The notes below the pieces were generated by a model. The model worked only from the letters and a program-made list of their open reading frames with translations, ran no database searches and was not told the DNA's origin. The position numbers and the translations under genes are program-made. DNA of 64,000 nt from Myxococcota bacterium (GTDB lineage: Bacteria; Myxococcota; UBA4151), in NCBI GenBank assembly GCA_040260805.1, contig JBDQPD010000004.1, positions 6,219 to 70,218 on the forward strand, given 5' to 3'. Below, piece after piece: positions 12,618 to 35,308 of this stretch. How positions within the stretch are numbered: position 1 is the stretch's first letter; each line of letters begins with the position of its first letter.

Positions 12618-12793
12618 GCAAAGCGTGCGCGCACCTCGCGCGCGGCCGATCCATGAACGACCGACATCGACACATTCTGATCCCTGATTCACAAGGAACC
12701 AAAAAATATGCAGGCGCAAAAATCAACGATCGGGCTTTGCAAAGATTATTTCCGAGGTTAAGCGCTCTTCACTACATTGCCGGAGGGCGCACC

Positions 12794-15131: not shown

Positions 15132-16843
15132 CGGCGACGCATCAGCAGCTTACGCCGCCCATCAAAGGTCTCTGCCAGTAGCCTCAGAACGCCAACCTTT
15201 TGAGGGGCATTGAGCAGCTGATCGAGCCAACGCCGCCGCGCCTCTTGGCGCCGAATTTTTCCTGACGACGTGCGCGGCAAACTGCCAGCAGGGAGCACCT
15301 CGACAGCAGCCGGGTTGAGACCTGTGGCGCCGCGAACGGCTTGGCGCATCTGCACTAAGGTCTCCTCGCTCACCTCGCCATGAGCCTCGGCGAGTAAAAC
15401 CACCGCTTCGCCCTCATCAACAGTAATCGCAAAGGCGGCGCTGCAGCCTGCTCTCAAGCCAGCGATCTCATGAACGGCTTGCTCGATAACCGCTGGGTCA
15501 TGGTTTCGGCCGCGCAGGATGATCAGATCTTTGGCGCGACCGGTCAGATACAGCTCGCCTCGCCAAACGAAGCCTTCATCGCCGGTATCAAGCCAGCCAT
15601 CAGCCATGATCTCTTGAGTCGCTTTGGGGTCGTCCAAATAGCCCTGCATCACGCCAGGACCCTGGACCCACACACGACCGATCTGCCCCTCGCCAAGCGC
15701 TTTAGAGCCATCACAGATCTTGAGCTCATGTCCGGGAATTGGCTGCCCTAAGCTGACCCACTGATCACCAGAATCTAAAGGCTCAAATCGTCGTGTTTTC
15801 TCGACGCGCTCACGATCTCCAAAGACTCGACTAAAAGGCTTCTTCAGATCCGAGAATGTGACGGCAAGCGTCGCCTCAGCCAAGCCGTAAACAGGCGTCA
15901 GCGCTTGGCGCGGCAAGCCCACCTGCGCGAAGCGGTCGACGAAACGATCGAGAGTGGCAGGATGAACCGGCTCGGCGCCACACAATGCGACCATCCAACG
16001 ACTCAGGTCGAGCCCGCTCAAATCTTTGACGCGATCAGCGCACAATCCATAAGCAAAATTCGGAGCGACCGAGATGGTTGCCCCACTTTCGGAGAGCGCT
16101 TCAAGCCATAATCGAGGGCGCGCAATGAATCGCTCGGGCGGAAGTAAGGTCAGGGTACCCGGCGTAATCAAGGCAACGACCAAGGCGCCGATCAACCCCA
16201 TGTCGTGATACAAAGGAAGCCAGCTCACCCCCGAATGCTCACGGGGATCGCCAGGAAAAGTGCTCATGATCGCCTCAGCGTTAGCGATCATATTGTAATG
16301 GCTCAAAGCCACCGGCTTGGGATCACCGGTGGTCCCTGAACTAAACTGAATGCAGGCGAGATCATCGGGGATCGGTACCGCATCGAGTTGAGGGGGCTTC
16401 GAACCCAGTAGATCGCCAACTTTTAGCGCGCCAAGCGGGATCTCAGCGGCGGTCGTGGGATGCCCGACAAGGCCCAACAAGCGATGATCGGTCAACACCG
16501 CCTTCGCCGGAAGTCGGCGCAGCATCTGGGTCGTTCTTTGCTTCCACTCTGAGAGCAAACCTAAACGCACCGGAGGGTACAGCGCAGCAGGAATTGCGCC
16601 GGCAAAAAGGACCCCAAAGAAGGCGTCATAAAAGTCGATCGATGTCGGCAAAATGAGCGCCACTCGATCGCCCGGCACCACACCGCGAGCCTGCAGTGAA
16701 CCCGCGACCCGGCGCGCCCGCTCGAGGATGTCACGATAGGTGTACGAGACATGGGTCCCGGGTCGCTCTTGGAACCGTAGCTCGACATCTTGAAAACTCG
16801 CTGCACGACGCAGCGCATCGACTAAGGTCTCAGGCCTGTTCAT
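15128..16843 (-). CDS. Fatty acyl-AMP ligase (FAAL) / AMP-dependent synthetase, FtpD-like
   Basis: FSSGTTGDPKPV AMP-binding motif; FAAL-type architecture; adjacent ACP. Confidence 0.85.
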   Translation of the reverse strand: MNRPETLVDALRRAASFQDVELRFQERPGTHVSYTYRDILERARRVAGSLQARGVVPGDRVALILPTSIDFYDAFFGVLFAGAIPAALYPPVRLGLLSEWKQRTTQMLRRLPAKAVLTDHRLLGLVGHPTTAAEIPLGALKVGDLLGSKPPQLDAVPIPDDLACIQFSSGTTGDPKPVALSHYNMIANAEAIMSTFPGDPREHSGVSWLPLYHDMGLIGALVVALITPGTLTLLPPERFIARPRLWLEALSESGATISVAPNFAYGLCADRVKDLSGLDLSRWMVALCGAEPVHPATLDRFVDRFAQVGLPRQALTPVYGLAEATLAVTFSDLKKPFSRVFGDRERVEKTRRFEPLDSGDQWVSLGQPIPGHELKICDGSKALGEGQIGRVWVQGPGVMQGYLDDPKATQEIMADGWLDTGDEGFVWRGELYLTGRAKDLIILRGRNHDPAVIEQAVHEIAGLRAGCSAAFAITVDEGEAVVLLAEAHGEVSEETLVQMRQAVRGATGLNPAAVEVLPAGSLPRTSSGKIRRQEARRRWLDQLLNAPQKVGVLRLLAETFDGRRKLLMRRR

Positions 16844-17081
16844 GGCGTTCCTTTAAGCGCTGCTCAACCAAGTCGATCAGCTCACGAACGGTTTGCGGCG
16901 GCTGATCGGGGGGTTCTTCAAGGCACAGGTCGAAGTGATTTTCGGTCTCGAGCGCAAGGGTGAGTAAGCCCATCGAATCCAAGCCGAGATCTTCTTGCAG
17001 ACGAGCATCGAGCGTCACGTTGTCGGTCACACCGCAGTGTTCGGCTAAGATCGTACGCACCGCATCAAAACGTTCGCTCAT
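16830..17081 (-). CDS. Acyl carrier protein
   Basis: 83 aa with LGLDSM phosphopantetheine-attachment motif. Confidence 0.8.
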   Translation of the reverse strand: MSERFDAVRTILAEHCGVTDNVTLDARLQEDLGLDSMGLLTLALETENHFDLCLEEPPDQPPQTVRELIDLVEQRLKERHEQA

Positions 17082-17587
17082 CCGCCGAGTGCCTCCTCTT
17101 CGACCGAGATGCGATGACGCAGCAGCAGTCCATTAGCTACGGTAAAGAAGACCGCAGTAAACCAGCCACCAAAGACCAATGGCAGCGCAAAAATCTCAAG
17201 CACCACGCCCAGATAGTTGGGGTGTCGAATCCATGTAAAAGCACCGCTGGTCACCAGCGGCTCATTAGGTAGGACCAATACGCGCGCCGTCCAGCGCTCG
17301 CCCAGCGATCGCATGGCGAGTAATCGAAGCGTTTGCCCAACGATCACGAGCACAAGCATACCGACCGCTAAGAACGGGTTGGGTAGACCGTGGCCACCAA
17401 AGACGGCTTCGCCAGCGCAGGAGACCAACCACAAGGTGTGCAACGCGACCATCACCGGAAAATGACCGGCGCCAACCTCTTGAGCCCCCCGCGCGCGCAG
17501 AGCTTTTTCATGGCGCCGCGACCGAGCGGTTTCGGCTAAACGCTGGACCGCCACTAAACCGACAAGCGCAAGATAACACCCAAGCAT
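17078..17587 (-). CDS. Isoprenylcysteine carboxyl methyltransferase (ICMT) family membrane methyltransferase, FtpB/SrsB-like
   Basis: Multi-TM with RHPNYLG...E motif of ICMT/PEMT family; embedded in type III PKS operon. Confidence 0.8.
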   Translation of the reverse strand: MLGCYLALVGLVAVQRLAETARSRRHEKALRARGAQEVGAGHFPVMVALHTLWLVSCAGEAVFGGHGLPNPFLAVGMLVLVIVGQTLRLLAMRSLGERWTARVLVLPNEPLVTSGAFTWIRHPNYLGVVLEIFALPLVFGGWFTAVFFTVANGLLLRHRISVEEEALGG

Positions 17588-17590
17588 AAG

Positions 17591-18652
17591 CTACCTCGCC
17601 TCAAGCACGCAGAGCTCAGCACAAAAGGCGGGACCAAACGCAAAGAGTAACCCTTTTGAGCCCGACTCAAAGCCGGCCGATATCGCATCGGCGAGGACAA
17701 AGAGCACCGAGGTGCTGCTCATGTTGCCAAAGCGCGCAAGGCTGTCCCAACTCCGAGCAAAGTCGTCATCGGTAAGACCCAACGCCGCCGCAGCGCTTCG
17801 AAGCACCTTGGGTCCGCCGGGGTGCCCAACAAAGAAACTCAAATCGCTGCGCGTCAGACCATCTTGTTCCAAAATGGCGTCGAGCGCTCCAGGCATCTCA
17901 TGGGCGACCACCTCGGCGACCGTGGGGGCGAGCACGACCTTAAAGCCTGAGCTGACCACATCCCAGCCCATGATGCGCTCCGTCTCGGGGATAAAGTGTG
18001 ACCGGCTGGCGCGCACGGCGACCGGAGCTTTCGTGGCGAGGGGGTGCTCGTCACCGACCATCACCACAGCGGCTCCGCCATCTCCAAACAAGCCCGAAGC
18101 GACAATGTTGGCGACACTCAGATCTTCTTTTTGAAGGGTTAAACTGCACAGCTCAACCGAGACAAAGACGGCTGCCGCCTTAGGATGCCCTTTGAGAAAG
18201 TCAGAGACTCGGTTGATCCCAGCGGCGCCGGCTAAACAGCCCAAACCAAACAAAGGCATGCGCCGAGTCGTCTGGGCAAAGGGTAGCTGATTCATGAGAC
18301 GCGCATCAAGGCTCGGTACCGCCACCCCAGTGACCGTCGTGCTGGCGATCAAGTCCACCTGATCAGCGGGCAACCCCGCTTGATCCAGCGCCCCTTGCAC
18401 CGCTCGAGTAGCCAGCGGAACCGCAACCTCGATCCAGGCATCATTGTGGTCACCAAAGCCCTCGAGCGCGTCATAACGCTCAATCGGCAAGGCGAGGTGG
18501 CGACCACCGACTAAGACGTTGCGTTGAAACTTAGCGATGCGCTCAGGGTTGGCGTAACGCGTCCCCCATCGCTCCATGAGCGCTTCGATCAGCTGGTCTT
18601 GACCGTAAAAGTGATCGGGAAGGGCGGTCTGAACTGAGATGATATGAGGCAT
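17591..18652 (-). CDS. Type III polyketide synthase (chalcone/stilbene synthase family), FtpA-like
   Basis: 353 aa; active-site Cys context LFGLGCLAGAAG, C-terminal GHPGGPKVL and FGPAF motifs of CHS-like thiolase fold. Confidence 0.85.
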   Translation of the reverse strand: MPHIISVQTALPDHFYGQDQLIEALMERWGTRYANPERIAKFQRNVLVGGRHLALPIERYDALEGFGDHNDAWIEVAVPLATRAVQGALDQAGLPADQVDLIASTTVTGVAVPSLDARLMNQLPFAQTTRRMPLFGLGCLAGAAGINRVSDFLKGHPKAAAVFVSVELCSLTLQKEDLSVANIVASGLFGDGGAAVVMVGDEHPLATKAPVAVRASRSHFIPETERIMGWDVVSSGFKVVLAPTVAEVVAHEMPGALDAILEQDGLTRSDLSFFVGHPGGPKVLRSAAAALGLTDDDFARSWDSLARFGNMSSTSVLFVLADAISAGFESGSKGLLFAFGPAFCAELCVLEAR

Positions 18653-18686: not shown

Positions 18687-19832
18687 TCAATCGGTTCCGG
18701 TTTGAATCAGATACTTCTTCATGTTGCGACTGTAGACCTGTCGCCAATCCTGCTGATCACGAACTAGAAAGAGCGCTTCAAGATCAGGATCTGAATCCAC
18801 GAACTTCAGGCCCTTTTCATCGCCCATCACCATCAGCGCAGTGGCATAGGCATCTGCGGTGGCGCAGTCTTTGGCGATCACCGTTACACTAGCCAGTCGA
18901 TGGACTACCGGCTCACCATTACGCGGATCAACGATGTGCTGCACACGCCGGCCGTTCTCGATTCGAAACTGACGATAATCCCCGCTCGTCGCCATCGCCG
19001 AATCAGCGAGCTTGACGATCGCAGCAAAACGCTTGCCGGGCTCGACTCCATCGACCGGAGCATCGACGGCGAGCTTCCAGGCTCCGCCTTGGGCTCGCTC
19101 GCCCCAGGCGACCACTTCTCCACCAATTTCGACCATGCCGTGTTGAGCGCCGGCTGTTTTCAGGATTCCAGCGACACGGTCGACGGCATAGCCTTTGGCG
19201 ATTGCGCTGAGGTCCAAACGCATACCGGCGTCCGCTTTGATCAACTCGCCCGGTTTCCCCCAGCGCAGCTTGGTGTAGCCAACCAGCCTTCGAGCGGCGG
19301 TCAACTCCTCAGGCTTAGGCAGGGTTGTACGAGCTTTGGCACCAAAGCCCCATAAGCCGATCAGCGGACCCACCGTGGGGTCAAAGGCGCCTTGAGTGTG
19401 CTTGGCGATCTCGAAGCTTCGCTTGATCACCTCGATGCTTCGCTCACCCCAAACAAAGGGCTCGGCAGCGGCTTGGTTGAACGTTGAAATCGAGCTATCC
19501 TTTTGCCACGTCGACATGCCTTGATTGATCGCCTTGAACTCGGCTTTGACGGCCGCCAGCAGCTGAGTTTCATCCAGCCCTGCGCCGCGCGCCTTGGCGG
19601 ACCATGTCGTGCCAAAGACTCGCCCAGCAAGCTCGACACCCTGAACGCCTGTCGCTGGGCTGGGTTGAGGTGCTGCTTGAGCGGCAGGCTGAGCAGCGGG
19701 CTCGCTCTGGGTTGAGCATGCGCTGATCAGTAACGCCACGCCGAGGCAGGGTATCAAACGGTGATGAGGGCTAGTACAAAACCAGCGAACAGGCCTAAAA
19801 AGAGGTAGCATACATTTTCTCCCATCGTGCAC
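18687..19832 (-). CDS. apbE: FAD:protein FMN transferase ApbE (lipoprotein)
   Basis: Signal/lipobox LLISACS; ApbE family motifs (DLSAIAKGYAVD; HIVDPRNGEP). Confidence 0.8.
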   Translation of the reverse strand: MHDGRKCMLPLFRPVRWFCTSPHHRLIPCLGVALLISACSTQSEPAAQPAAQAAPQPSPATGVQGVELAGRVFGTTWSAKARGAGLDETQLLAAVKAEFKAINQGMSTWQKDSSISTFNQAAAEPFVWGERSIEVIKRSFEIAKHTQGAFDPTVGPLIGLWGFGAKARTTLPKPEELTAARRLVGYTKLRWGKPGELIKADAGMRLDLSAIAKGYAVDRVAGILKTAGAQHGMVEIGGEVVAWGERAQGGAWKLAVDAPVDGVEPGKRFAAIVKLADSAMATSGDYRQFRIENGRRVQHIVDPRNGEPVVHRLASVTVIAKDCATADAYATALMVMGDEKGLKFVDSDPDLEALFLVRDQQDWRQVYSRNMKKYLIQTGTD

Positions 19833-19858: not shown

Positions 19859-22612
19859 GTGACCCTAAGAATCACTTTACTGATCGGACTTTTGGGTAGT
19901 GCCTGCAGCGAGCGATTGCCGCAAGCACCCGACGGCTGTGAAGGGGTTCAATGTGGCTGCCAAGAACACACGGACTGCCCCATTGAGACCCCTGAATGCT
20001 GGGCTGGGCTGTGCAGAGAGAGCGACTCTACCGAGGTCGCTTGGGCTCATCGCGACATCATCTTGCCCGCTTCGGCGGACGCACCGGATTCGGATCTGCA
20101 TGCCGTGGATTTGGCTCGAGCGATCGACCTATCGAAGGACTCGCTAATCGACGGTCTGTTGAGCGAACAACCGATAACTAACTGGAGATTGTACGCCAAC
20201 GACGACGGAGACCGACTCGCTGTCCATGTCGGCGGTTTGATCATGGTCCGGCCCGCCCTAAACAAGCCACGGATCTGGCAACCCACGTCGAGAAAACTGA
20301 CGAATAACGGACCCGGTGTTCATCCGGACCTGCGCGCGATCGCTGGCTACGAGTCGCTCAAACAAACTGTTCTAAGCGCCTCAAGAAACGGCCTGTTGGC
20401 GTCGAGCAGCCCCGTGCGGCTTTTGAACACGTCGGAACACCGAGTGATCCTTGGCAAACCCTTGCACCGAATGATCGTTGATCTGATGGGACCCGTCGTA
20501 CCAGGAAGACCGACTGGCTCGTTGTCGATCGCCTCGCTCTCGAAGCTGATGCAGCGAGGCCACGCGCTGCCCCATCCCCGAAGTCTAGGGCCTAGTTTTC
20601 CCAGCCGGACCCGGCCTGAGTTGATCATCGGTCGAAACTATCGATTTTCGCTCGAGGCCGCTGCGGACCTGCGCATCGAAGAGCTGCTCAAATTGTCCAA
20701 CGCCAGCGTCCAGGATCTGATGAGTTGTGACGAGCTACGCGCTGCACATATCACCATCTCGATAGACGGTGGTGCGCCGCAAAGCTGGAGCCGCCAGGAC
20801 GACCCGTTCATTCGCTCGCTCGAGGCCGGCGAGCACACATTGAGTTTACGCTACCCAAGTAAAGTCCAGAACTGTCCAAACCTTGAGAACAACTCGAGCC
20901 TCATGCGTTGGGCTCGACTCACCCTGAAGTCAGACCGAGAGATCGAGCTGATCTCCTGGTCACCCGTGACCCCTCTTCCCATCGACAACAACGCGCGCCC
21001 CGTGCTGTACCGCGAGGACGCGGGTTTGTTGAGAGATAAAGACGGCGACAACTGGCCTGATGCGAGCGATCTTTGTCCTCAAGATCCTGATCAACAAAGG
21101 GATGGCGACCAAAATGGAATTGGGGATGCATGCGATGGGTTTTATTCGGCTCGAGCCGAAGAAGATCAGCTCACTGCGGTCAACCGAAACGGTGATGAGC
21201 TCGGCACCCAGTCGCTCCCAAACTTCAATCCCCTCTTGAGCTTTCAAACGGCGCTGACCTCCCCTCAAACCGAGATCACCTATCCTGATTCTGATGAGAT
21301 CAACGCCAACGCGGTGACCGGCGCAGTCATTTTCCAGACCAGCTCGGATGAGGACGTTTATCAGTGGAACCCAGACCAAGAGCCCCAGGCGCTCGGAATT
21401 GTTCCCATCGTCCCTGGCAATACCCCAACACAGCTCATGCAAATCCAGTCGAACCAACGCTACGCTGCGATGCATTTTCGGTTGCTTGGGAGTCTGACCC
21501 AGCTCGACATTCAAACGATTGTCATGAAAAATACGATTGCGAACCATGAGGACTCGGACAAGCGGCAGGTCACGACGCGCTACGTGTACAGCGGCTGGGA
21601 GCCAGCGTTCGCGGTCGCCGACCCTAGCGAGCCGTTGTTGTTGGTCTCGGACCAAGAGATCGGACATGCAGCGTTCAGCGCCATGCGCGTCTTTCCGGCC
21701 GCGCTGATACGGTTCCCCAGCCTCTTGCTGGCGCCGGCGATGACCCAATGCCAAGCGGATAACGACTGTCTTGTGCGAGGAAGCCACCTCACAGAAAACG
21801 GCGTCGACATTGCACGCACATGCGTCAGAAACCGCTGCGTCAGCGACAGCACAAGCGGTCGCTGTGTTCGCGAAGCTCAGCCGACGAGTTCAACCCTGAA
21901 CGCTTGTCGTCCGGAACAAAGCGGCACCTGCATCACCGGTGATTGCGACGACAACAACGCGAGCTGCTCGGCTGGCTTGTGCTGGCGGCCAGCCAACAAC
22001 GAATGCGCTCAAGGCGAGACCTGCCTCCCGAGCAACCTCTCGCGCAGCACCGCTAGCTCCTATTTTATGGGACTCATGCCTCGAGGCGTCGCCGGGCTTT
22101 TTGAGGGCGGCTACTTTAGTCCATTGAGCTATGCGCTCGCTCGAGATCTCGGCCTCGCCCTAGCGGCAAAGCAACTCGGCGTGGTCCAAGCCTTACCGAT
22201 GGACCGTGAAGCGCCCGTTGCGCTCACCGCGTGCCCGAAAGAGTGGCTCGATGGCAGGCTGACCGCTTACTTTACCCAAGAAGAGCAACGCAGCTTACTG
22301 CGCAGGGTGCTCGACCCGAACGTACGCGCTCAGGACCTCTTTGAAATCGCCGAGGTCGACCAGGCTTGGGTGTTGCAACCCGGTGACGATCCGCCGAGCT
22401 CGATTTGTCGACCCATTCGTTCGACATGGCGCGGTTATTTCCCCTCACAGCTTGCCCCTCAAACAGCAGAGTTTGTGGACATCGACAAAGATGGGATTAA
22501 TGAATTTCGAGTCGGCTTTTCAGTCTTGGAGCGCTCGCCGAGCGCCGAGCCTGCGGTCTACCGCTGTTTCGACTTTAATGGTGATCACCAAGCGACCAAT
22601 TGCACCCCTTAG
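19859..22612 (+). CDS. Large secreted/lipoprotein with Cys-rich N-terminal module and thrombospondin type-3-like Ca-binding repeat; paralog of 24265..27324
   Basis: Signal LLIGLLGSACS; DKDGDNWPDASDLCPQDPDQQRDGDQNGIGDACD (TSP3-like); C-terminus ...FVDIDKDGINEFRVGFSV...YRCFDFNGDHQATNCTP shared with paralog. Confidence 0.7.
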   Translation: MTLRITLLIGLLGSACSERLPQAPDGCEGVQCGCQEHTDCPIETPECWAGLCRESDSTEVAWAHRDIILPASADAPDSDLHAVDLARAIDLSKDSLIDGLLSEQPITNWRLYANDDGDRLAVHVGGLIMVRPALNKPRIWQPTSRKLTNNGPGVHPDLRAIAGYESLKQTVLSASRNGLLASSSPVRLLNTSEHRVILGKPLHRMIVDLMGPVVPGRPTGSLSIASLSKLMQRGHALPHPRSLGPSFPSRTRPELIIGRNYRFSLEAAADLRIEELLKLSNASVQDLMSCDELRAAHITISIDGGAPQSWSRQDDPFIRSLEAGEHTLSLRYPSKVQNCPNLENNSSLMRWARLTLKSDREIELISWSPVTPLPIDNNARPVLYREDAGLLRDKDGDNWPDASDLCPQDPDQQRDGDQNGIGDACDGFYSARAEEDQLTAVNRNGDELGTQSLPNFNPLLSFQTALTSPQTEITYPDSDEINANAVTGAVIFQTSSDEDVYQWNPDQEPQALGIVPIVPGNTPTQLMQIQSNQRYAAMHFRLLGSLTQLDIQTIVMKNTIANHEDSDKRQVTTRYVYSGWEPAFAVADPSEPLLLVSDQEIGHAAFSAMRVFPAALIRFPSLLLAPAMTQCQADNDCLVRGSHLTENGVDIARTCVRNRCVSDSTSGRCVREAQPTSSTLNACRPEQSGTCITGDCDDNNASCSAGLCWRPANNECAQGETCLPSNLSRSTASSYFMGLMPRGVAGLFEGGYFSPLSYALARDLGLALAAKQLGVVQALPMDREAPVALTACPKEWLDGRLTAYFTQEEQRSLLRRVLDPNVRAQDLFEIAEVDQAWVLQPGDDPPSSICRPIRSTWRGYFPSQLAPQTAEFVDIDKDGINEFRVGFSVLERSPSAEPAVYRCFDFNGDHQATNCTP

Positions 22613-24165
22613 AGGTGATGACGGTCGGGTACCAGCACGCCGAGTTCAAGCAGTCCGGCAAACACCTCATCGTTCGGTGGCGTCTGGTTCATATCCTCTA
22701 ACCAATCGGCGCTGACTTCATCCAAGCTAAAGACCTGCACTTCATCAGTGCCATCGCGCACCACCAACACGCTGCTCGCTTGAGCGACTAAACCCCCGCC
22801 ATCGAGCGCCACCAAGAGATCAACTGGGGCACGCACCAATTCGTGCCCAGTGCCTAGCCGCCAGGATACATCAAGAGAAACAGGCACTAAACTCTTCGCC
22901 TCAAGGTCGGCTTTGGGTGGGTCAGCAAGCGCCGCTTCAAGACGCGCTAAACCCGCCAGGTCGGCTTGACCGGCACGCTCAAGAGTAGCGGCGAAGCGGC
23001 GCGCCAAATGCAAGCGCTCAAGCTGATCACCCGAGACAAAGCGGTCCACCCAATGCGCGCCACCTTGGGCTAAGGTCTGCGGCACGCAGGACTCCAGCCC
23101 ATCGCGAATTTGAAGACGACTCAGACCGTATTCGACCGTTAGCGGGTAGCCGCAGGCAAACACGCGACTCGGCTGAGGCAGAACCCATTCGTCATGAAGC
23201 GCCTCATAGACCGAGATCGCCTCTTCAACAGGGGCACCCGAAGCGAGCTGATCAACAACATCAAGCAGGGACTGGGCGACGTCACCTTCGGCTTCGGTCC
23301 AAATCATCAGCAAACGCCAAGCGAGGTCTTGAGCAACGCAGGTCGATGCATCGAGTACCGACTCGACATCACGACCCTCGAGCAAGTCTTGAGTCAACGC
23401 TTCGATCCGCTGAGAGAACGCATCGAGCGTTGAAGTCGTCGGCGGAAAGCGTTCCATCAACAGATGAAATGCTCGGCTGTTGAGTCGCGGTTGGTGCGAT
23501 GCAGCGTAAGCCAAACCATCGCTCGCTAAATCGAGCGTGGCGTAGCGTCTTGGATGCAGCCGCCCCGCCTCGATACTGAGCCGAACCCCTTCGAGTTGGG
23601 AACGTACAAAATCGTGCCCTCGCTCCCACCAAGAAGCGTCAAACTCAACCGGATCTCCAGCTGCTCGCTCGCAATCCGGACAGTAGGCGCCAAAAAGTGG
23701 TCCTTGTCCTCGATGCAAGGGACAACGTCTCAGGTCTGCTTCATCAAAAAAGTACCAAAGCGCCACCGGCAGAATTTCAGCCTGCCAGCCCGCTAGGGCA
23801 TGAAAGAACGGCGAGGCGCCGGGCGCCCAGGCAAACCCTTGAATGCCATGCATCCACTCGTGCGCAGTCCATTTGGCGCGATGACTCGGGTGGTAACTTC
23901 CGACCCACAGATCATGGCGGTAGCTTTGGTATTTCGACTCCGGGAGCTGCCCGTTGCTCCAGCCTTGGACTCGTCCAAGGTCCGCTCGGGCTTCAGGCAA
24001 CCAAGCGGCTGGTAGAGGCAGCGTCTCTCGATACTCAAAATGCGCCATCGGTAAGCCATATCGCTGCGCCTGCCGCTCAACCCAAGCGGCTGCTCGGCTT
24101 CGGCTCGACTCAGCGTTTGGTGGTTGCCAGTCCATAATCATGACCCCAGTAGCCCAAAGCTGCAT
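22609..24165 (-). CDS. Hypothetical protein with HExxH-like motif (HEWMH), flanked by paralogous giant lipoproteins
   Basis: 518-aa ORF, GC3-rich; AHEWMHGIQGF possible zincin motif; no confident family. Confidence 0.55.
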   Translation of the reverse strand: MQLWATGVMIMDWQPPNAESSRSRAAAWVERQAQRYGLPMAHFEYRETLPLPAAWLPEARADLGRVQGWSNGQLPESKYQSYRHDLWVGSYHPSHRAKWTAHEWMHGIQGFAWAPGASPFFHALAGWQAEILPVALWYFFDEADLRRCPLHRGQGPLFGAYCPDCERAAGDPVEFDASWWERGHDFVRSQLEGVRLSIEAGRLHPRRYATLDLASDGLAYAASHQPRLNSRAFHLLMERFPPTTSTLDAFSQRIEALTQDLLEGRDVESVLDASTCVAQDLAWRLLMIWTEAEGDVAQSLLDVVDQLASGAPVEEAISVYEALHDEWVLPQPSRVFACGYPLTVEYGLSRLQIRDGLESCVPQTLAQGGAHWVDRFVSGDQLERLHLARRFAATLERAGQADLAGLARLEAALADPPKADLEAKSLVPVSLDVSWRLGTGHELVRAPVDLLVALDGGGLVAQASSVLVVRDGTDEVQVFSLDEVSADWLEDMNQTPPNDEVFAGLLELGVLVPDRHHL

Positions 24166-24264
24166 ATCCTAGGCCGTCAAAACAGGAAATGCACGGTTTC
24201 GGTAGACAAGCGACGACCAAAACGTGAGCGGGTCATTAGGATGACTTCAAACGGCGCAAGCATC

Positions 24265-27200
24265 ATGAAAAGAGTTCTATTTTTAGTCGCTTTATCTGGC
24301 TGCGCCTCAGAGCTTCCGGCGCTCGAGACCTCCTCGGTTCGAGTCGCTCAATGCGCCCTCGATAGCGACTGCCCAGTCGATCGCCCTGCCTGCGTGACGG
24401 GGGTGTGTCAGCCCTGCGCAGATGCGCGACACTGCAGCGATCAAGCGCCGGTCTGTTCTGAAAACCAATGCATCGAGTGCTCGGCACATGATGACTGTCC
24501 AGACGGTAAGGCAATATGCCAAGCTCAGCGCTGTATTGACTGCTTAGAGGACCTCCATTGCGGCGATGAAACGCCAGTTTGCGTGGAACAGCAATGTGTC
24601 GACTGCCGATCCAACTCCGACTGCCCTCTCGATCGCGGCGTATGCTCTGACAATCGCTGTATTTTAGACCCCGATGGTCGCAGCGCTTGGGACCATATCG
24701 GAACCGTTCTCCCTGGAGCCACACGCGTACATGGTGTCGAACTCGGTCACGAACTGAATCTTCTTCACATGGAGCGGCTTAGAGGTCGCCAATGGACAGT
24801 CGGTGTGATCGAAGGTCAGACCCAACTCAACTGGGGGGTGCTTCAAGACGCTCAAGGCCGGCGAATAGCGCTCCACAACTCAGGGCTTATTGTCGTAGAG
24901 CCGGCGGAGACAGACCCCTCACTTTGGCTGCCTGAGTTTGAAGACGTTCGTGATCATGGGCCAGGGATTCGCCGAGACCGTCGCGGCGTCTTTGGGTACG
25001 ATCTGCTCCACGACCTCATCATCGACCTAGCGCACTTTGGACTCTTCGACAGCAACACCCCGGTCAAAGACCTTAACTCGAGCCGTCATCGCTTTATCAA
25101 TGGTTCCAATCGCTACATCTTAGTGGATGACATCCTCTACGGTAAAGCAGCGGGCTTGAATCGCGATCTGACTCAAACGGCGCTCGCGGACCTCAAGTCT
25201 CGCTATTGGCCTGAGCCGACCGTGACCTCAGGAAACACCTACCGAACCAGCTACGAACGCAACCTCAGCGTTAGGCTTAACGGACCGAGTCAGCTCAAAG
25301 TGACGACGATCCACCAGGAGCTCATCGCTGTCTACCCGGCCGAACTGCCCGACGACGCCGCCTTTTGCGAAGCCCAAATCAGCGTTCAAATCAACGGCAA
25401 CACCCCTCAGACCGAAACCGTCGAGTTGGCGGCCGGTGAGCACTCGATACAGCTGCTCGCTCGATCGTCTGACGCCGAGGACTGTCAAACTCAGCTCGGG
25501 CCGTTGACCTCTGCCAAACACCCGCCTTCGTGGTGGCGGTTGGTCATCGAGAGCGATGATGAAATTGAGCTGTTGGGCTGGGATTACGGTCCGATCACTC
25601 GAGCAAGCTTCAACCAGAATCATCGACCGACTAGCCTATCCTTGCTGGCGGGTGATCTGAGCGATCAAGACGGTGATCACTGGCCGGATGCCAGCGACTT
25701 GTGTCCAGAGATTAAAGACGAACAACTCGACGGCGATCAGGACGGTATCGGCAACCGGTGTGATGGTGTGATGAGTCTGGAGCGCGTGTCCGAAAACACG
25801 GTGGCTGCATGGAACCAAAATGATGAAGAATTGTTCCGGACCGAAGCGAGTGAGTATGCTGATATCTTTACCGCGTTGGTCGTTGAACCCAAACCGTTCG
25901 CGCACCTCGACGACATCAACGGTTTGGCATCCGAACAGGCACTGATTATCAAACCCAGCCGAGATCGCCCGGTACAAGTTTTTGATTCGAGCGGGGCGGT
26001 CATCTTTGAGGCGCTCGAAGGAGAGGGTATCAGACTGCAAGGGGTGTCCTCCGATGGTTTCAGGCTCGGATTAATGGGGTATTCGCAGACTCCAATCTCC
26101 CCGATGAGTGAAACGAGGACCCTGTTTTCAATCTCGAACATCGGGCTTGGATCCACTCGGAAAACGAGATCGTTTTTCATGCGCTCAAAGCGGGGTAAAT
26201 TTGTTTTGGTTCCGCGCAGCAGCGTCGCCTCACCGCTCCTCCGAGCCGAACTAAGCAGGCGTTTCATAAATGAACCGATGATGACGATCGCAACGACACA
26301 GAAAATGGTCCCTATTCACGTCTCTCGGCTGGCTCAGTCGCTACTCCCGGGTTTCAATGGGACCTGTACGTCCGACGCTCAATGCGTAGGCGGTTCGTGT
26401 GGTGAGTGGCGCTGTACGATCGGCGGTGTTTACGACCATTGCGAGGGCAGCGAAGAGACCATTAATAGCTTTTGCTACCCCAACTCGGATCGAGGGTACT
26501 GTATTGACCGCTCCGGTAGTTGGTACCGCCCGAGCTCATTTAGAGCCTGTGCTCATGAGCGCACCGCCTGCGAAACCTCAACAGAGTGCGCCGGAGGCGA
26601 CCTGTGCGTTATGGGGCGCTGCAAGTCGACGTGCACTGAATCAGAGGACTGCGCTCAAGACGAAGTCTGCATGGGGGCGATGGCGCCTATGCTTGGAGAG
26701 CTCGGAGTCTGCGCTTCCTCTGTTGCAGACCCAAACTGTGAAGCGTCAGAGCGATGCTATGCGGCGAGTGACGTCGCCTTCGATCTGTCCGGACAGATGT
26801 ATCTCAGGAGCCTTCAGATTCAGGGGAACACCGCGCCAAAGACGACGATTAACGCCTTGCTGATCATCAATCTACTTGAGAGCGCCATGCAAAACGGAGG
26901 CAGCGAGAATAGTTTTGGCGAATTTGGCTGGTGCCTACCGGAATTGACCGGGTCGAATCAAAACAGTCTCTCCGAGAGCCAGTCTCGAACCAAACTGCGT
27001 CAGATTTTCGACAACCAAACGCCTTGGAACGAACTGTTCACACTGGGTCAGTTCACAGGGTCGATTAACACCTACACAAACCTTTGGGGCTTCAACCACG
27101 CCTGGAGTCATCAGTGCGAGACCTTGTACTCGAAATGGCAGGCTACCTTTCCCGATAGCCTGATACCGCAAAGCATCGAAATGGTGGACATTGACGGCGA

Positions 27201-27324
27201 CGAGATCGAAGAATTCAGAGTAGGCTTCAGCATCAACCCAAACCAAGCTGGCGATGCGACGACGTCGACTTGGCGGTGTTATAATGTCTTCGGCGAGCAG
27301 CTCACCGGCAACTGCACACCCTAG
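24265..27324 (+). CDS. Large lipoprotein with Cys-rich tandem modules and TSP3-like repeat; paralog of 19859..22612
   Basis: MKRVLFLVALSGCAS lipobox; repeated C-x-D-x-D-C-P modules; DQDGDHWPDASDLCPEIKDEQLDGDQDGIGNRCDG; C-terminus MVDIDGDEIEEFRVGFSI...[17 protein letters not shown]. Confidence 0.7.
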   Translation: MKRVLFLVALSGCASELPALETSSVRVAQCALDSDCPVDRPACVTGVCQPCADARHCSDQAPVCSENQCIECSAHDDCPDGKAICQAQRCIDCLEDLHCGDETPVCVEQQCVDCRSNSDCPLDRGVCSDNRCILDPDGRSAWDHIGTVLPGATRVHGVELGHELNLLHMERLRGRQWTVGVIEGQTQLNWGVLQDAQGRRIALHNSGLIVVEPAETDPSLWLPEFEDVRDHGPGIRRDRRGVFGYDLLHDLIIDLAHFGLFDSNTPVKDLNSSRHRFINGSNRYILVDDILYGKAAGLNRDLTQTALADLKSRYWPEPTVTSGNTYRTSYERNLSVRLNGPSQLKVTTIHQELIAVYPAELPDDAAFCEAQISVQINGNTPQTETVELAAGEHSIQLLARSSDAEDCQTQLGPLTSAKHPPSWWRLVIESDDEIELLGWDYGPITRASFNQNHRPTSLSLLAGDLSDQDGDHWPDASDLCPEIKDEQLDGDQDGIGNRCDGVMSLERVSENTVAAWNQNDEELFRTEASEYADIFTALVVEPKPFAHLDDINGLASEQALIIKPSRDRPVQVFDSSGAVIFEALEGEGIRLQGVSSDGFRLGLMGYSQTPISPMSETRTLFSISNIGLGSTRKTRSFFMRSKRGKFVLVPRSSVASPLLRAELSRRFINEPMMTIATTQKMVPIHVSRLAQSLLPGFNGTCTSDAQCVGGSCGEWRCTIGGVYDHCEGSEETINSFCYPNSDRGYCIDRSGSWYRPSSFRACAHERTACETSTECAGGDLCVMGRCKSTCTESEDCAQDEVCMGAMAPMLGELGVCASSVADPNCEASERCYAASDVAFDLSGQMYLRSLQIQGNTAPKTTINALLIINLLESAMQNGGSENSFGEFGWCLPELTGSNQNSLSESQSRTKLRQIFDNQTPWNELFTLGQFTGSINTYTNLWGFNHAWSHQCETLYSKWQATFPDSLIPQSIEMVDIDGDEIEEFRVGFSINPNQAGDATTSTWRCYNVFGEQLTGNCTP

Positions 27325-29150
27325 GCTTTAGGGCTCGACTTCGCCGCAATCCGCCGCTCAAACTCTTTGAGGTGACGCTTGCGAATACGCAACGCAGTGG
27401 GTGTGACTTCCAGAAGTTCATCTTCATCGAGGAACTCAAGGCATTGCTCTAAGCTGTAATCAAGCGGTGGGGTCAGGATCACGTTCTCATCGCTGCCCGC
27501 AGCGCGCACGTTGGTGAGCTGTTTGCCCTTGAGTGGGTTGACCACGAGGTCGTTGTCTCGAATGTGAATGCCGATCACCATGCCCTCGTAGACTTCTTCA
27601 CCTGGGCCGACGAACATCGCGCCCCGGTTTTGCAAGTTGAACAGCGCGTAGGCGATCGCCTTGCCTGCGCCATTGGCGATCAAGACGCCACGGTGACGAC
27701 CGCCAAGCTGGGCGTCGACTTTGGGCTTATAGGCTTCAAAGACGCGGTGCATCAGCCCGGTGCCGCGGGTCATGGTCAGAAATTCGGTCTGAAAACCCAG
27801 CAAGCCGCGCGTGGGGATCGCATACACGACCCGCAAACGACCGGAGCCATCAGGGACCATATCCTGAAGCTCACCCTTGCGCAGCCCGAGGCTCTCCATA
27901 ACCGGACCTTGATAGTTCTCATCAAAATCACAGACCAGACGCTCCCAAGGCTCATTGACCACCCCATCGATGGTCTTGTTGATCACCTGAGGGCGCCCCA
28001 CAGCGAGCTCATAGCCTTCTCGGCGCATGGTCTCGATCAGCACCGCCAAATGCAGCTCACCGCGCCCACAGACGGTCCAGCGCTCCGCTTTGTCGGTGTC
28101 TTCTACCCGCAGCGCCACGTTATGCAGCAGCTCGGTGTCTAAGCGCTCACGAATCTGGCGCGAGGTGACAAACTTTCCATCACGCCCCGCCAGCGGCGAG
28201 GTGTTGATCTCAAAGCTCATATTGACCGTGGGTTGATCGACACGAAGCGCAGGCAGCGCCTCTTCTTGGCCGACCGCACAGATGGTATCCGAGATGCGTA
28301 AGGCGCCTAAGCCGGTGATCGAAACGATCGCGCCGGCGCTCGCCGAATCCACAGCGACCCGCTCAAGCCCGTGGTAATTTTGAACCTCAAGGACCTTGCC
28401 TTTACGCACCGAGCCGTCCGCGCCAACGATACTGACTTGCTGCCGAGGAGCGATGCTCCCGCGGTGGATACGTCCCACGCCAATGACGCCCGTGAAGCTG
28501 GTGTAGCCGAGCGACGAGACCTGCATCTGTAAGGGGCCATCGGTGTCGACTTTGGGCGCAGGCACGTGATCGATCAAGGCATCGAGCAAGGGCGTCATAT
28601 CCTCACCGAGCTCATCGATCTCTAAGCCCGCATATCCGTTCAAGGCTGAGGCGTAGATTGTCAGAAACTCGAGCTGGTCGTCAGTGGCGCCCAAACGATC
28701 AAATAATTCAAAAGTCTCATCGAGCACCTCGTGCGGACGAGCGCCCGGACGGTCGACCTTATTGATCACCACGATCGGCTTAAGCCCGAGGTCAAAAGCT
28801 TTGCGGGTCACAAAGCGAGTCTGCGGCATCGGGCCGTCGACCGCGTCGACCAAAAGCAGCACCGAATCGACCATACTCAAAACCCGCTCAACCTCACCCC
28901 CGAAGTCGGCGTGTCCAGGCGTATCGACGATGTTGATCTGATGATCTTTCCAGCGGATCGCCGTGTTTTTAGACAAAATGGTGATCCCGCGCTCGCGCTC
29001 GAGATCGTTCGAATCCATGATCCGCTCACCGTGATCTTTACGCACGTCGATGGTCCCCGACTGAGCGAGGAGCTTGTCGACCAAGGTGGTCTTACCATGG
29101 TCAACGTGAGCGATGATCGCCACGTTGCGAAGTTGGTTGTGAGGACTCAT
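27321..29150 (-). CDS. typA: Translational GTPase TypA/BipA
   Basis: [21 protein letters not shown]1 motif, DTPGHADF G3, EF-G-like domain order; start at MSPHNQLRN. Confidence 0.9.
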
Positions 29151-29221
29151 GACATCACCCCTTGGAAAGGAGGCGCCTCTAAACACGTTCCACGCCCGCT
29201 GTCATGCGCCAAGCGACGCAG

Positions 29222-29257
29222 GCAAAAAACGAAACAGGGGCGGTCACCCGCCCCTGC
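29222..29257 (-). terminator. Rho-independent terminator downstream of nqrF
   Basis: Perfect inverted repeat CAGGGGCGG-TCAC-CCGCCCCTG (29235-29256) followed on minus-strand RNA by UUUCGUUUUUU. Confidence 0.55.
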
Positions 29258-29282
29258 TTAAACATCCGATGATCAATAGCGC

Positions 29283-30509
29283 TTAGCCACCAAAGTCATC
29301 GAAGCGAATCATCTCATCATCGACGCCCATTTCGTCGAGCATCCTAAAGACCGCCTCGTTCATCATCGGCGGACCACAAAGGTAATACTCAATGTCTTCA
29401 GGCGCATCGTGCTTCATCAGATAGTTGTCCTGAAGGACTTGATGGATGAAGCCCTCATAGCCCTCCCAATCGTCCTCAGGCAGCGCGTTCGACAGCGCGA
29501 CGTGATATTTGAAGTTCGGGAAGTCGCTCTCAATGTCCTTGAACTGATCATCGTAGAACATCTCACGGCGAGACCGAGCACCATACCAGAAGCTGACCTT
29601 GCGGTCGGTCTTTTGCGTATGGAAGAGGTCAAAGAGGTGAGAGCGCATCGGCGCCATGCCCGCACCACCGCCGATGAAGCACATCTCACGCTGTGTCTTT
29701 TGCTGGAAGAACTCACCGTAGGGGCCTGAGACATACACCTCGTCGCCCGGCTTGAGATCAAAGATGTAACTTGAGGCGATCCCTGGGGGCACATCGTCCT
29801 TGCCTGGCGGCGGGGTGGCGATGCGCACATTGAGCATCACGATCTGCCCTTCAGCGGGATGATTCGCCATCGAGTAGGCTCGGAAGCAGTCCTCGTCGTT
29901 GTTGGCGGTGTACTTCCAAAGGTCCCACTTGTCCCAATCCTCGCGGTACTCGTCTTCGACATCAAAGCTCTTGTAGGAGAGCCCCGCGTACTCGGGGATA
30001 TCGATCTGGATGTAACCGCCGGCTTCGAACTCGAGCGTATCGCCGTCTTGGATCTCGAGAACGAGCTCTTTGATGAAGGTTGCGACGTTCTCATTCGAGC
30101 GCACTTTGCAGCGGAATTTTTTGATGCCAAAGATCTCGTCGGGGATCCCGATCTTCATGTCTTCTTTGACTTTGACCTGGCAGGCTAAGCGCCAGTTATC
30201 TTTGGCTTCTTTGCGATTGATATGGCCTGCTTCGGTCGGCAGTAAATCACCGCCGCCTTCGAAGATCTGGCACTTGCACATGGCGCAAGTTCCACCGCCA
30301 CCACACGCCGAAGGCAGGAAGATTTTCGAGGTCGCCATCGCGGTGAGCAGGTTCGTTCCCGGCGAGACCGGGATCGCGCCTGCAGAATCGCCATTGATCT
30401 CGATGCTCACTTCACCTTGCGCTACCAGCTTCTTCTCAGCTGCTAACAATCCACCTACAATGACCAATACCACCGAGGTAAAGGCAACGACTGCAATCAG
30501 AATTTCCAT
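29283..30509 (-). CDS. nqrF: Na+-translocating NADH:quinone oxidoreductase subunit F
   Basis: N-terminal TM, 2Fe-2S ferredoxin Cys cluster ([10 protein letters not shown]), FAD/NADH-binding domains. Confidence 0.9.
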
Positions 30510-30523
30510 GATCGCCGTCCTTT

Positions 30524-31138
30524 CTAAAGTTGAATGCCAGCGAAGGTCATAAAAGCCATCGCCATCAATCCGGTGAGCAACATCGTAATACCTAAGCCTC
30601 GCAGACCGTCAGGCACATGCGAGTAGCGCAACTTCTCGCGGATGGCAGCCATCGACACGATCGCAAGGAAGAACCCAGTCCCTGAACCCAAGCCAAAGAC
30701 AACCGATTGACCCAAGGTATAATCTCGCTCGGCCATAAACAAGGACGAGCCAAGAATCGCACAGTTCACAGCGATCAAAGGAAGGAAGATCCCCAAGGCG
30801 GTGTAGAGCGCCGGCGAGAACTTATCGATCGCCATCTCCACCAACTGCACCAGCGCCGCGATCACAGCGATGAAGGTGATAAAGGTCAAGAAGGTTAAGT
30901 CGACCTCAGCGAGCGCCGGACTGATCCGTTCGAGCGCGCCGTCATTGAGAATGTAGTTGTAGATGAACCAGTTGGTGGGCGTTGCGATCACCAACACAAA
31001 GATCACCGCAAAGCCTAGCCCGACCGCGGTCGAGACCTTCTTCGACACGGCGAGGAAGGAGCACATGCCAAGGAAGTAGGCGAGCAAGATGTTCTCGACA
31101 AACACCGACTTCACGAAAAGACTCAGATAAGCTTCCAT
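30524..31138 (-). CDS. nqrE: Na+-NQR subunit E
   Basis: 204-aa hexa-TM protein, [34 protein letters not shown] typical NqrE N-terminus. Confidence 0.9.
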
Positions 31139-31141
31139 GAT

Positions 31142-31789: not shown

Positions 31790-31792
31790 GCC

Positions 31793-32527: not shown

Positions 32528-32535
32528 CGTTCCTC

Positions 32536-35174: not shown

Positions 35175-35308
35175 GTCACTCCTAGAGGGGTATGGGTCCC
35201 CCTCGCACGCGCAGACGCGCACTCGACCGCGTGAGGCGGCGCCCCCCATTAGACAGCTTTTGTAGCGCGAACAAGGCCGTCGAAGCGTTTTCCCGAACGC
35301 TGCCGGGT

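Follow-up and report, generated by a model that had tools for sequence, protein, structure and literature searches.

Two paralogous lipoproteins of an orphan family lie antisense in the nqr–apbE gene row of a marine myxobacterium-like organism, beside a predicted HExxH metalloprotein

Introduction

Bacterial surface proteins of the PF02412 (TSP_3) family carry arrays of 5–20 TSP3 units, with the signature D-x-D-x-D-G...D-x-x-D...C-P...D-x-D-x-D-G-x-G-D-x-C-D and a cysteine pair. TraA, the polymorphic outer-membrane-exchange receptor of Myxococcus (NF033759), has tandem Cys-rich repeats, a PA14-like variable domain, a MYXO-CTERM tag and a partner, TraB. Gluzincins combine an HExxH motif with a downstream glutamate. 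NGO1945, finally, is a DUF2063 + RRE partner protein of MNIO enzymes (PMC12452194).

Here we describe a locus in an uncultured marine myxobacterium-like organism that encodes two lipoproteins, A and B, and a protein, MID, between them. A and B share the PF02412 signature and its cysteine pair, but each has one unit where the PF02412 proteins have arrays, and about 95% of their length, outside that unit, is unrelated to any TSP3 protein. B resembles TraA weakly through its tandem Cys-rich repeats (E 6.8e-5; the NF033759 match covers the Cys repeats alone, reaching 21.6 bits where the cut-off is 750), and the lipoprotein family resembles it in its cell-envelope location and its strong allelic divergence between close strains. 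The PA14-like domain was not detected in A or B, TraB has no counterpart here, and the MYXO-CTERM tag is absent; instead, both have an N-terminal lipid anchor and an NCTP end with no hydrophobic tag. In its C-terminal half MID shows the two-domain architecture of NGO1945, HvfC and BufC, but it is twice as long, with an extra N-terminal HExxH/CHCC domain, and its sequence matches to these proteins are all under curated cut-offs. Like gluzincins, MID has an HExxH motif on a helix and a glutamate further on, both invariant, the latter 24 residues away where the next helix starts; it differs from them in matching no peptidase family or structure, in an additional C-x2-H-x10-C-x2-C site and, in the model, in having little beta-sheet ahead of the motif helix.

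Results

The locus was analyzed within a window, the whole 64,000-nucleotide stretch of DNA, whose features are collected in Table 1. From 14 to 37.5 kb the PKS cluster, apbE, MID, typA, nqrF-A and Band7/NfeD are all on the minus strand. The three reading frames of the initial annotation exist, with MID opposite to A and B, but MID had been presented there as an antisense gene flanked by duplicates; because the whole surrounding array is minus-strand, it is A and B that are antisense. The genes nqrABCDEF, typA, MID, apbE and the type III PKS cluster form one co-directional row, into which two members of a small family restricted to this lineage appear to have been placed on the opposite strand. 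By these ORF coordinates apbE and A diverge across a gap of 27 bp, and the stops of B and typA overlap by 4 nt. Neither the Rfam nor the tRNA scan gave a match in the window, and promoter and terminator scans did not rise above shuffled sequence. We rejected the idea that A or B had recently been acquired horizontally, since their GC, GC3 and codon usage are like those of the neighboring genes. Our overall reading, which we hold with evenly balanced confidence, is that A and B are exported envelope binders set antisense in the nqr–apbE row and that MID is unconnected to them.

Table 1. Positions of genes, motifs and the variable segment in the window.
Feature	Position	Strand	Remarks
apbE	18687–19832	-	flavin transferase; Pfam ApbE E 4e-88; lipoprotein-type N-terminus
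Lipoprotein A	19859–22612	+	917 aa, ORF call
TSP3-like unit of A, DKDGDNWPDASDLCPQDPDQQRDGDQNGIGDACDG	21035–21139	+	Pfam TSP_3 20.6 bits, E 3.7e-4
C-terminal loop of A, VDIDKDGINEF	22475–22507	+	DxDxDG type; within the family's best-conserved region
MID	22609–24165	-	518 aa, signal peptide absent
C148/H151/C162/C165 site	23671–23724	-	invariant, 28/28
Candidate third ligand E130	23776–23778	-	invariant, 28/28
HEWMH (H102, E103, H106)	23848–23862	-	residues 102–106; invariant in 28/28 homologs
9-bp direct repeat, GGCTCGACT	24102–24110 and 27332–27340	+	coincides with the cassette breakpoints
Strain-variable cassette	24112–27338		typA stop to about 18 codons into MID; blastn breakpoints
Lipoprotein B	24265–27324	+	1019 aa with the MKRV start; 1027 aa if begun further upstream at MTSNG
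Cys units of B	24352–24660	+	residues 30–132; five tandem 21-aa C-x5-C-x6-C-x4-C
TSP3-like unit of B	25663–25767	+	Pfam TSP_3 19.1 bits, E 1e-3
C-terminal loop of B, VDIDGDEIEEF	27184–27216	+	sequence reading
typA/bipA	27321–29186	-	translational GTPase, convergent with B; Pfam families in syntenic loci L006 and L088

The two lipoproteins are paralogs, as had been proposed, and can be aligned over their full length (26% identity, E 5e-74). Lipoboxes were judged by eye as a signal peptide ending in [LVI][ASTVI][GAS]C (Lgt/LspA substrates). B begins with MKRVLFLVALSGC and has a canonical LSGC lipobox (ALSGC), A begins with MTLRITLLIGLLGSAC and has GSAC (LLGSAC), less canonical at position -3, and homologs P0115 and P0119 have a lipobox as well; both A and B thus have the hallmarks of bacterial lipoproteins. 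A contains 27 cysteines and B 47, each total leaving an even number (26 and 46) once the lipobox Cys is set aside, which together with the lipoboxes we take as the export and disulfide logic of the two proteins. The Cys-rich N-terminal modules described before are there in both, as a single C-x5-C-x6-C-x4-C module in A, which has a further Cys-rich region at residues 631–722, and as five such modules in B; these have diverged too far for a DNA-level tandem-repeat search, which found none. The common C-terminal domain also stands: both proteins end in RC(F/Y)..G....NCTP with a VDIDxDxIxEF loop ahead of it, and D874, E882 and R884 (A numbering) are conserved in this domain across the family. In P0119 the region equivalent to the loop gives a weak FG-GAP_3 match (E 0.01). 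Against a strain that is ∼96% identical, dN/dS was 0.22 for A, which is under purifying selection.

A TSP3-like repeat had been reported in both proteins. The calcium-binding motif is indeed found in each, as D(K/Q)DGDxWPDASDLCP...DGDQxGIGxxCDG at residues 393–427 of A and 467–501 of B, with the acidic DxDxDG/DxxD motif and Cys pair (DKDGDNWPDASDLCP...DGDQNGIGDACDG), but it occurs as a single unit, so that "repeat" was an overstatement; we found no tandem array in A or B. Whole-protein scans of A and B against PF02412 gave no match, and the isolated segments score below the gathering cut-off of 25 bits. The motif is kept in seven to eight of eight family members, and through this segment alone the family profile reaches bona fide multi-repeat TSP_3 proteins (100–360 bits against TSP_3). 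Because of the sub-cut-off scores, and because the profile matches run only through that segment, we read it as one TSP3-like unit and not as an array.

How small the family is became apparent in an exhaustive HMM search, which was needed because a word-indexed search, with A and with an A/P0115/B alignment, returned solely A itself and P0115. Among 1.84 billion representative proteins the family has ∼15–20 members; only 14 matches fell below 1e-30, and every other match was confined to the TSP3 segment. Pfam and NCBIfam gave no family above threshold for A, B or MID, in agreement with the initial annotation, which had assigned none; the C-terminal half of MID proved to be DUF2063/RRE-like (see below). 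A and B belong to an orphan lipoprotein family without a curated family.

The AF2 model of A (mean pLDDT 62) is poor over about half of its length and well modeled in an alpha/beta domain (∼30–210), for which Foldseek/PDB detected no structural match, and in a CBM-like beta-sandwich (∼257–370). The only Foldseek matches were weak ones, to CBM and GOLD domains and to the CE2 beta-sandwich (E 7e-3 to 0.1), and none of them was to an enzyme fold. One could nevertheless picture A and B as secreted enzymes, perhaps acting on carbohydrates or as hydrolases, in which a CBM-like module accompanies a catalytic domain diverged past recognition: a segment of ∼120 residues in A is like the beta-sandwich of CE2 esterases and CBM35/CBM6 (Foldseek, weak; prob up to 0.98, in the same E range), and residues 430–760, in the poorly modeled half, may hide a cryptic catalytic domain. 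As neither protein matches a catalytic domain in Pfam, NCBIfam or the PDB, and as the family-conserved residues are mainly Cys, Gly, Pro, Trp, Asp and Arg and reveal no recognizable catalytic motif, we regard this as very unlikely. We instead expect A and B to be Sec/Lol-exported and lipid-anchored in the envelope, and to be built from disulfide-knotted Cys modules, the alpha/beta domain, the CBM-like sandwich, the TSP3-like unit and the DxDxDG C-terminal domain. Judged by sequence and model, a Ca-stabilized, non-enzymatic role in binding, adhesion or scaffolding at the cell envelope is most likely; the proteins show no catalytic signature and may be surface-exposed or periplasmic.

The recurring neighbor of the lipoprotein family is apbE, found next to it in four lineages besides that of the window (L005, L007, L090/L091 and L092), always within or beside an nqr locus and with divergent spacers of 18–101 bp. 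The family seems to occupy two positions: in the older, the gene abuts apbE divergently (A and the distant members P0119 and P0122), and in the second it lies in the typA–MID interval (B). ApbE acts outside the cytoplasm, and the ApbE encoded here itself has a lipoprotein-type N-terminus, so A-type lipoproteins might be extracytoplasmic partners of ApbE/Na+-NQR in flavin or metal supply or pump assembly, expressed from a shared divergent promoter. The persistence of the pair in L090 and L092, where ApbE is merely 47–49% identical and the lipoprotein 24–28% (NqrF 78% in L090), speaks for such a partnership. On the other hand, L006 (NqrF 88%, TypA 86%) has nqr, typA, MID and apbE but no family member, B- and C-type copies are not adjacent to apbE, and the genes between nqrF and apbE vary in every lineage, so that the adjacency may be merely an inherited position. 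The flavinylation motif Dxx[ST]GA[ST] is also absent from A, B, C, P0115, P0119, P0122, P0123 and P0124, the nearest match being SGAS in P0119, which lacks the upstream Asp. We consider the partnership rather unlikely, although the apbE adjacency could point to a respiratory or flavin-related role instead of adhesion.

The second position differs between strains. Comparison by blastn aligned L088 4–8121 with window positions 35455–27339 and L088 11393–12239 with 24111–23265, leaving a slot that contains B on the plus strand in the window and a paralog, C, on the other strand in L088 and L007. C is 30–31% identical to B, and the flanks of strains with B and with C in the slot are ∼95% identical. 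B-type slots are present in the window and L093 (TypA 81% identical, lipoprotein 36%), C-type slots in L007, L088 and L089, and the slot is empty in L006, where MID directly follows typA and a lipoprotein is on neither side. The slot alleles B, C and P0124-like have 30–54% mutual identity, the last few codons of typA differ between B-type and C-type alleles, and the C gene of L088 has an in-frame premature stop. A DNA-pattern scan of metagenomes for more typA-junction alleles found one contig, of C type. The second family position behaves as a replaceable cassette among near-identical strains. The 9-bp direct repeat at the breakpoints was considered as an att site or target-site duplication and downgraded, since the 9-mer is found five times on the plus strand of the window; it may be chance or microhomology.

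MID has at least 113 homologs, in Myxococcota and Holophagae, the latter including isolates (all other organisms concerned are uncultured), and its best relatives in the genome collection are 43–46% identical. With a dN/dS of 0.10 against the ∼96% identical strain, MID is under purifying selection. The previously noted HEWMH motif is invariant in a set of 28 homologs of 35–62% identity. E130, 24 residues past H106 and at the junction of helices 119–129 and 131–144 in sequence and AF2 model (pLDDT 92), is a candidate for the third zinc ligand that the initial annotation had left to be found. The predicted layout is an HExxH/Glu plus Cys-His-Cys-Cys domain (∼1–210) followed by a DUF2063-like helical and an RRE-like winged-helix part (∼210–518). 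For the N-terminal domain, profile searches and Foldseek gave no zincin match in sequence or structure, and PDB sequence-profile searches with this domain and with the whole MID profile gave nothing meaningful. The modeled C-terminal half has a DUF2063 + RRE-type fold, with a Foldseek match to 3dee (NGO1945) at E 1.2e-4, prob 1.0 and TM 0.52 on the target over 202 columns. NGO1945_C matches occur in 12 of the 28 members and HvfC matches in 8. MID itself falls short of the curated thresholds (PF22106, 18.2 against 27 bits; NF050145, 13 against 142 bits), and the E values of the top-scoring member of its family are 2.6e-4 and 1.4e-6, respectively.

Sequence and model predict that MID is a metalloprotein of the cytoplasm, in whose N-terminal domain HExxH and E130 are the most likely ligands of a catalytic metal, and C148/H151/C162/C165 those of a structural zinc. 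The DUF2063 + RRE architecture of its C-terminal half is that of the peptide-binding MNIO partners, and by this domain analogy MID may be a metalloenzyme that works alone and is directed at peptides or proteins. Neither an MNIO (DUF692) gene nor a Cys-rich precursor is beside MID in the window, where the neighbors are typA, B, A and apbE, and at L001, L003 and L006 none of the called genes around the MID homolog belongs to the MNIO family. A different reading, to which we give a minor but real share of our confidence, is that MID is a non-proteolytic HExxH metalloprotein, for example an Fe/alphaKG-HExxH hydroxylase, or a metal-sensing or regulatory protein, binding a partner through its DUF2063/RRE half. 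The missing zincin fold match would suit this reading, and NGO1945 was reportedly first put forward as a transcription factor. The HExxH motif also serves the alphaKG-HExxH hydroxylases of RiPP pathways (cited in PMC12452194). Yet MID matched none of the alphaKG-HExxH hydroxylase families in NCBIfam, Pfam models or solved structures, and its invariant Glu 24 residues past the motif would agree with a gluzincin pattern. The peptide- or protein-directed metalloenzyme stays our preferred reading.

The initial annotation had treated A, MID and B as a unit. Such a module, in which MID as a zincin would process, mature or regulate the flanking lipoproteins, has in its favor the conserved HExxH and the A–MID–B adjacency in the window, L005 and L007. 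The phylogenetic profile largely refutes it, and we consider it extremely unlikely: in none of 80 other genomes was an A/B/C-like gene found within 10 kb of the MID homolog, these 80 genomes lack the lipoproteins, P0119 and P0122 are found without MID, and near relatives in which the slot of B has another gene or none keep MID. Moreover, A and B are exported but MID lacks a signal peptide, and the three genes lie in separate transcription units that converge or diverge. Nor is any neighbor family widely common to MID homologs, the most frequent, an M16-like peptidase, accompanying at most 11 of 83 loci. The A–MID–B trio is a neighborhood accident and not a system.

Discussion

An appealing three-gene system has been replaced by three separate observations: an apbE-linked lipoprotein family, a cassette and the MID family. 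The recurrence of apbE as a neighbor, the strain variability at the B position and the DUF2063/RRE half of MID had not been part of the initial annotation.

At apbE in the Na+-NQR locus, the lipoprotein family may be an unrecognized envelope accessory, or its place there may be inherited. The swap of a large envelope protein between ∼95% identical strains is the pattern of recognition or antigenic loci. Going further, one may speculate that the typA–MID slot is a polymorphic envelope-receptor cassette, whose alleles are swapped when the conserved flanks recombine and are maintained by frequency-dependent selection, and, separately, that MID founds a new class of RRE-guided single-chain HExxH metalloenzymes; we regard this proposal as quite unlikely. 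If true, it would mean a strain-specific recognition system (for kin, prey or phage) that is analogous to TraA and made of unrelated domains.

To our knowledge, the DUF2063-RRE module has so far been known solely as a peptide-binding partner of MNIO RiPP enzymes. The MID family of Myxococcota and Holophagae, seemingly uncharacterized, joins this module to a conserved HExxH/Glu/CHCC domain and offers a starting point in the search for a new peptide-directed metalloenzyme.

Gene Order Around the Lipoprotein Genes

Between ~14 and 37.5 kb of the window all genes lie on the minus strand except those encoding the paralogous lipoproteins A and B. The minus-strand row consists of genes for an FAD oxidoreductase, an acyl-AMP ligase, an ACP, an ICMT-like methyltransferase and a type III PKS, then apbE and the gene for the 518-aa HExxH protein (MID), followed by typA, nqrF-E-D-C-B-A, Band7 and NfeD (partly from syntenic annotations). 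The three ORFs were found where the initial annotation had placed them, but its description of MID as the antisense gene is reversed: MID keeps the local orientation, and the antisense insertions are A and B. At their stop codons A and B overlap their convergent neighbors, MID and typA respectively, by 4 nt. The longest ORF for B has its start at a TTG (24124); with an alternative ATG the product is 1027 aa. The five-gene cluster directly downstream of apbE is conserved and syntenic in L007, a close strain, and in the related locus L005, and resembles a lipid cluster of the alkylresorcinol or alkylpyrone type.

Features of the window (positions of the forward strand)
Feature	Position	Strand	Description
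769-aa ORF	10410-12719	-	acidic Pro/Asp-rich middle
Five-gene cluster	14061-18652	-	FAD-dependent oxidoreductase, fatty-acyl-AMP ligase, ACP, ICMT/PEMT-like methyltransferase, type III polyketide synthase
A	19859-22612	+	917 aa ORF
MID	22609-24165	-	518 aa ORF
B	24265-27324	+	1019 aa from MKRV
Direct repeat, first copy	24102-24110		9 bp, cassette breakpoint
Direct repeat, second copy	27332-27340		9 bp, cassette breakpoint
915-aa ORF	39671-42418	+	MopE-type motifs, SRCR domains
FlhB/YscU-family gene	44781-45857	-	export apparatus
Small ORFs	45861-48817	-	run after the FlhB/YscU-family gene
820-aa protein	49816-52278	+	DUF4215 units

A, MID and B are real genes. Compared with L007, which is ~96% identical, dN/dS was 0.22 for A and 0.10 for MID, with values of 0.02–0.18 for adjacent housekeeping genes. 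As A and B resemble the neighboring genes in GC, GC3 and codon usage, we ruled out that they are recent foreign DNA.

Anatomy of A and B

The paralogy of A and B was borne out by an alignment over their full lengths (26% identity, E 5e-74). Both N-termini carry lipoprotein-type signal peptides, ending in LLGSAC in A and ALSGC in B. Beyond the lipobox Cys there are 26 Cys in A and 46 in B; an even number is expected of a fully disulfide-bonded exported protein. The Cys-rich modules that had been described are 21-residue C-x5-C-x6-C-x4-C units, of which B has five in tandem (residues 30–132) and A has one. The shared C-terminal domain, likewise recovered, contains a VDIDxDxIxEF loop and ends in RC(Y/F)..G....NCTP. 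It is the best conserved part of the A/B-type lipoproteins, in which Cys, Gly, Pro, Trp, Asp and Arg predominate among the family-wide conserved residues.

The claim of a thrombospondin type-3 repeat held in part. The motif is present, but as exactly one unit per protein (residues 393–427 in A, 467–501 in B), and the isolated segments score 20.6 and 19.1 bits, respectively, against Pfam TSP_3, under the 25-bit cut-off. A profile of the A/B family does recover hundreds of genuine multi-repeat TSP_3 proteins, solely via this segment. A and B thus share the Ca-binding motif of TSP3 proteins and differ from them in having a single, sub-threshold unit. Their likeness to TraA is limited to Cys-rich repeats and allelic divergence, and they fail its model, domain and sorting-tag criteria.

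The initial annotation could assign no family to A or B, and Pfam and NCBIfam give none either. When 1.84 billion cluster representatives were searched exhaustively with an HMM, only 14 proteins fell below 1e-30. Most are metagenomic fragments; the two full-length members, both divergent, are P0119 (868 aa) and P0122 (834 aa). Literature searches returned no description of this family or of the MID family. The AlphaFold model of A has a mean pLDDT of 62 and is confident for an alpha/beta domain (~30–210) and a beta-sandwich (~257–370). With Foldseek we saw no enzyme fold in A, only weak matches of ~120 residues to the CE2 esterase beta-sandwich, CBM35/CBM6 and GOLD domains. Judged by their domain content alone, A and B would be non-enzymatic, Ca-stabilized, disulfide-rich envelope proteins with a binding or scaffold role.

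MID Occurs Independently of the Lipoproteins

In a word-indexed database, 113 homologs of MID were found at E ≤ 1e-3. A scan of one genome per species located 80 loci, carried by Myxococcota (including Bradymonadia, Polyangiales and Nannocystaceae bins) and by the Holophagae isolates Sulfidibacter corallicola and Acanthopleuribacter pedis. The trio of A, MID and B that the initial annotation had proposed to profile phylogenetically did not recur, as none of the 80 loci has an A/B-like gene within 10 kb of the MID homolog. In the syntenic contig L006, nqrDEF is followed by typA and, after a gap of 13 bp, by MID (identities of 61% for MID, 86% for TypA and 88% for NqrF). No A/B family member is present, and the end of the contig carries what may be a fragment of apbE. 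In addition, A and B are exported and MID has no signal peptide. These observations refute the trio as one functional unit.

No neighboring gene family is common to more than 11 of 83 MID loci. In those 11, an M16-like (pitrilysin-type) peptidase gene lies ~0.5 kb downstream on the same strand, in eight of them followed by a second related gene. Other loci have an SDR gene divergently upstream and a GNAT gene downstream; these genes, like the M16-like ones, were identified by eye from sequence. In one distant relative, two proteins of ~500 aa with DUF4215/PPC matches come after MID.

The typA–MID Slot Is a Strain-Variable Cassette

The sequence between typA and MID is a strain-variable cassette. 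The close strain L088 is ~95% identical to the window in nucleotide sequence on either side of it: L088 4–8121 corresponds to window 35455–27339, a stretch that starts ahead of nqrA (Band_7 end) and runs up to where typA ends, and L088 11393–12239 to window 24111–23265, covering MID from about codon 18 on. The 3.2–3.3 kb between these flanks do not align, and the swap also alters the last typA codons and the first ~18 MID codons. The slot is occupied by B on the plus strand in the window, and in L088, L007 and L089 by a further paralog, C (~1040 aa, six Cys modules, 30–31% identity to B), which is opposite to B in orientation and co-directional with typA and MID. B-type contigs are present in several other assemblies. 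The more distant L093 (TypA 81%) has a family member that is 36% identical to both B and C, in the convergent B-type arrangement with the same 4-nt typA overlap.

A 9-bp direct repeat, GGCTCGACT, is found at both breakpoints. As this 9-mer occurs five times on the plus strand of the 64-kb window (and once on the minus strand; ~0.5 expected), its position may reflect microhomology or chance.

The C gene of L088 (8222–11338) has an in-frame TAG (ETVA*IVPV) where L007 has Gln, and is called as two ORFs of 386 and 445 aa. The stop may mark a pseudogene, a variant within the population or an error of assembly.

Divergent Pairing With apbE

In the window an A-type gene lies divergent to apbE at a distance of 27 bp according to the ORF coordinates. 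L007 and L005 have the pair as well; in L005 the A homolog is 45% and ApbE 60% identical. The most distant full-length family members, P0119 (L090/L091, Tara Oceans) and P0122 (L092), likewise have a divergent apbE next to them, within the nqr locus or adjoining it. Their spacers are 18–101 bp, despite identities of 47–49% for ApbE and 78% for NqrF, and the other flank of the lipoprotein gene is occupied by different genes in each lineage. This recurrence makes a functional link of the lipoprotein to ApbE/Na+-NQR a serious rival reading. We nevertheless consider it rather unlikely, because a motif scan found no ApbE flavinylation motif in the lipoprotein family and L006 lacks any family gene. 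The main reading is a binding or scaffold role in the envelope.

The interval between nqrF and apbE seems to be of variable content across relatives. It holds typA/bipA and MID in the lineage of the window (27321–35249, minus strand; L006, L088), and a Peripla_BP_2 gene with two unknown genes in L090.

Putative Metal Site and Domains of MID

The HEWMH motif reported for MID was confirmed at residues 102–106. Among 28 homologs (35–62% identity) the invariant residues include W99, H102, E103, H106, E130, C148, H151, C162, C165, D212, D216 and R227. In the confident AlphaFold model (pLDDT 92, pTM 0.90) helix 98–109 bears the HExxH, and E130 lies 24 residues past H106, where the following two helices meet, a gluzincin-like spacing. 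The residues of the C-x2-H-x10-C-x2-C motif are located in the loop after these helices, where they look like a structural zinc site.

The sole significant structural match from Foldseek was NGO1945 (3dee; E 1.2e-4, prob 1.0, 202 columns). In RiPP pathways this protein, composed of DUF2063 and RRE, is the partner of multinuclear non-haem iron oxidases (PMC12452194). Weak matches to Pfam NGO1945_C were found in 12 of the 28 members (best E 2.6e-4) and to NCBIfam HvfC in eight (best E 1.4e-6). For the N-terminal ~210 residues neither sequence profiles nor Foldseek gave a PDB match. MID shares its C-terminal architecture with DUF2063-RRE proteins, but is without their genomic partners and has an added, new N-terminal domain. 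We infer that MID is a cytoplasmic metalloprotein that joins a catalytic-type HExxH/Glu domain to a DUF2063-RRE module for peptide binding. Its substrate would be a peptide or protein encoded elsewhere, and the chemistry may be that of a peptidase or another.

Other Genes of the Window

This genome encodes large Cys-rich secreted proteins of several unrelated families. The 915-aa ORF has numerous putative Cu-binding motifs of the MopE type (PF11617, E 1e-36) and SRCR scavenger-receptor Cys-rich domains (PF00530, E 6e-32), which appear to be uncommon in bacteria, and the 820-aa protein is full of DUF4215 (myxobacterial Cys-rich repeat) units (E 1e-71). The 769-aa ORF, with no Pfam family, has a striking KKAKRRRRRRRRVRRVRRSNR tract and, by prediction, a TM-like segment. 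The FlhB/YscU-family gene (E 4e-115) and the small ORFs after it are possibly an export cluster of the flagellar or type III secretion kind.

The functions proposed for the three proteins are putative. Their anatomy is solid, A and B being Cys-rich, Ca-motif envelope lipoproteins and MID a DUF2063-RRE fusion.
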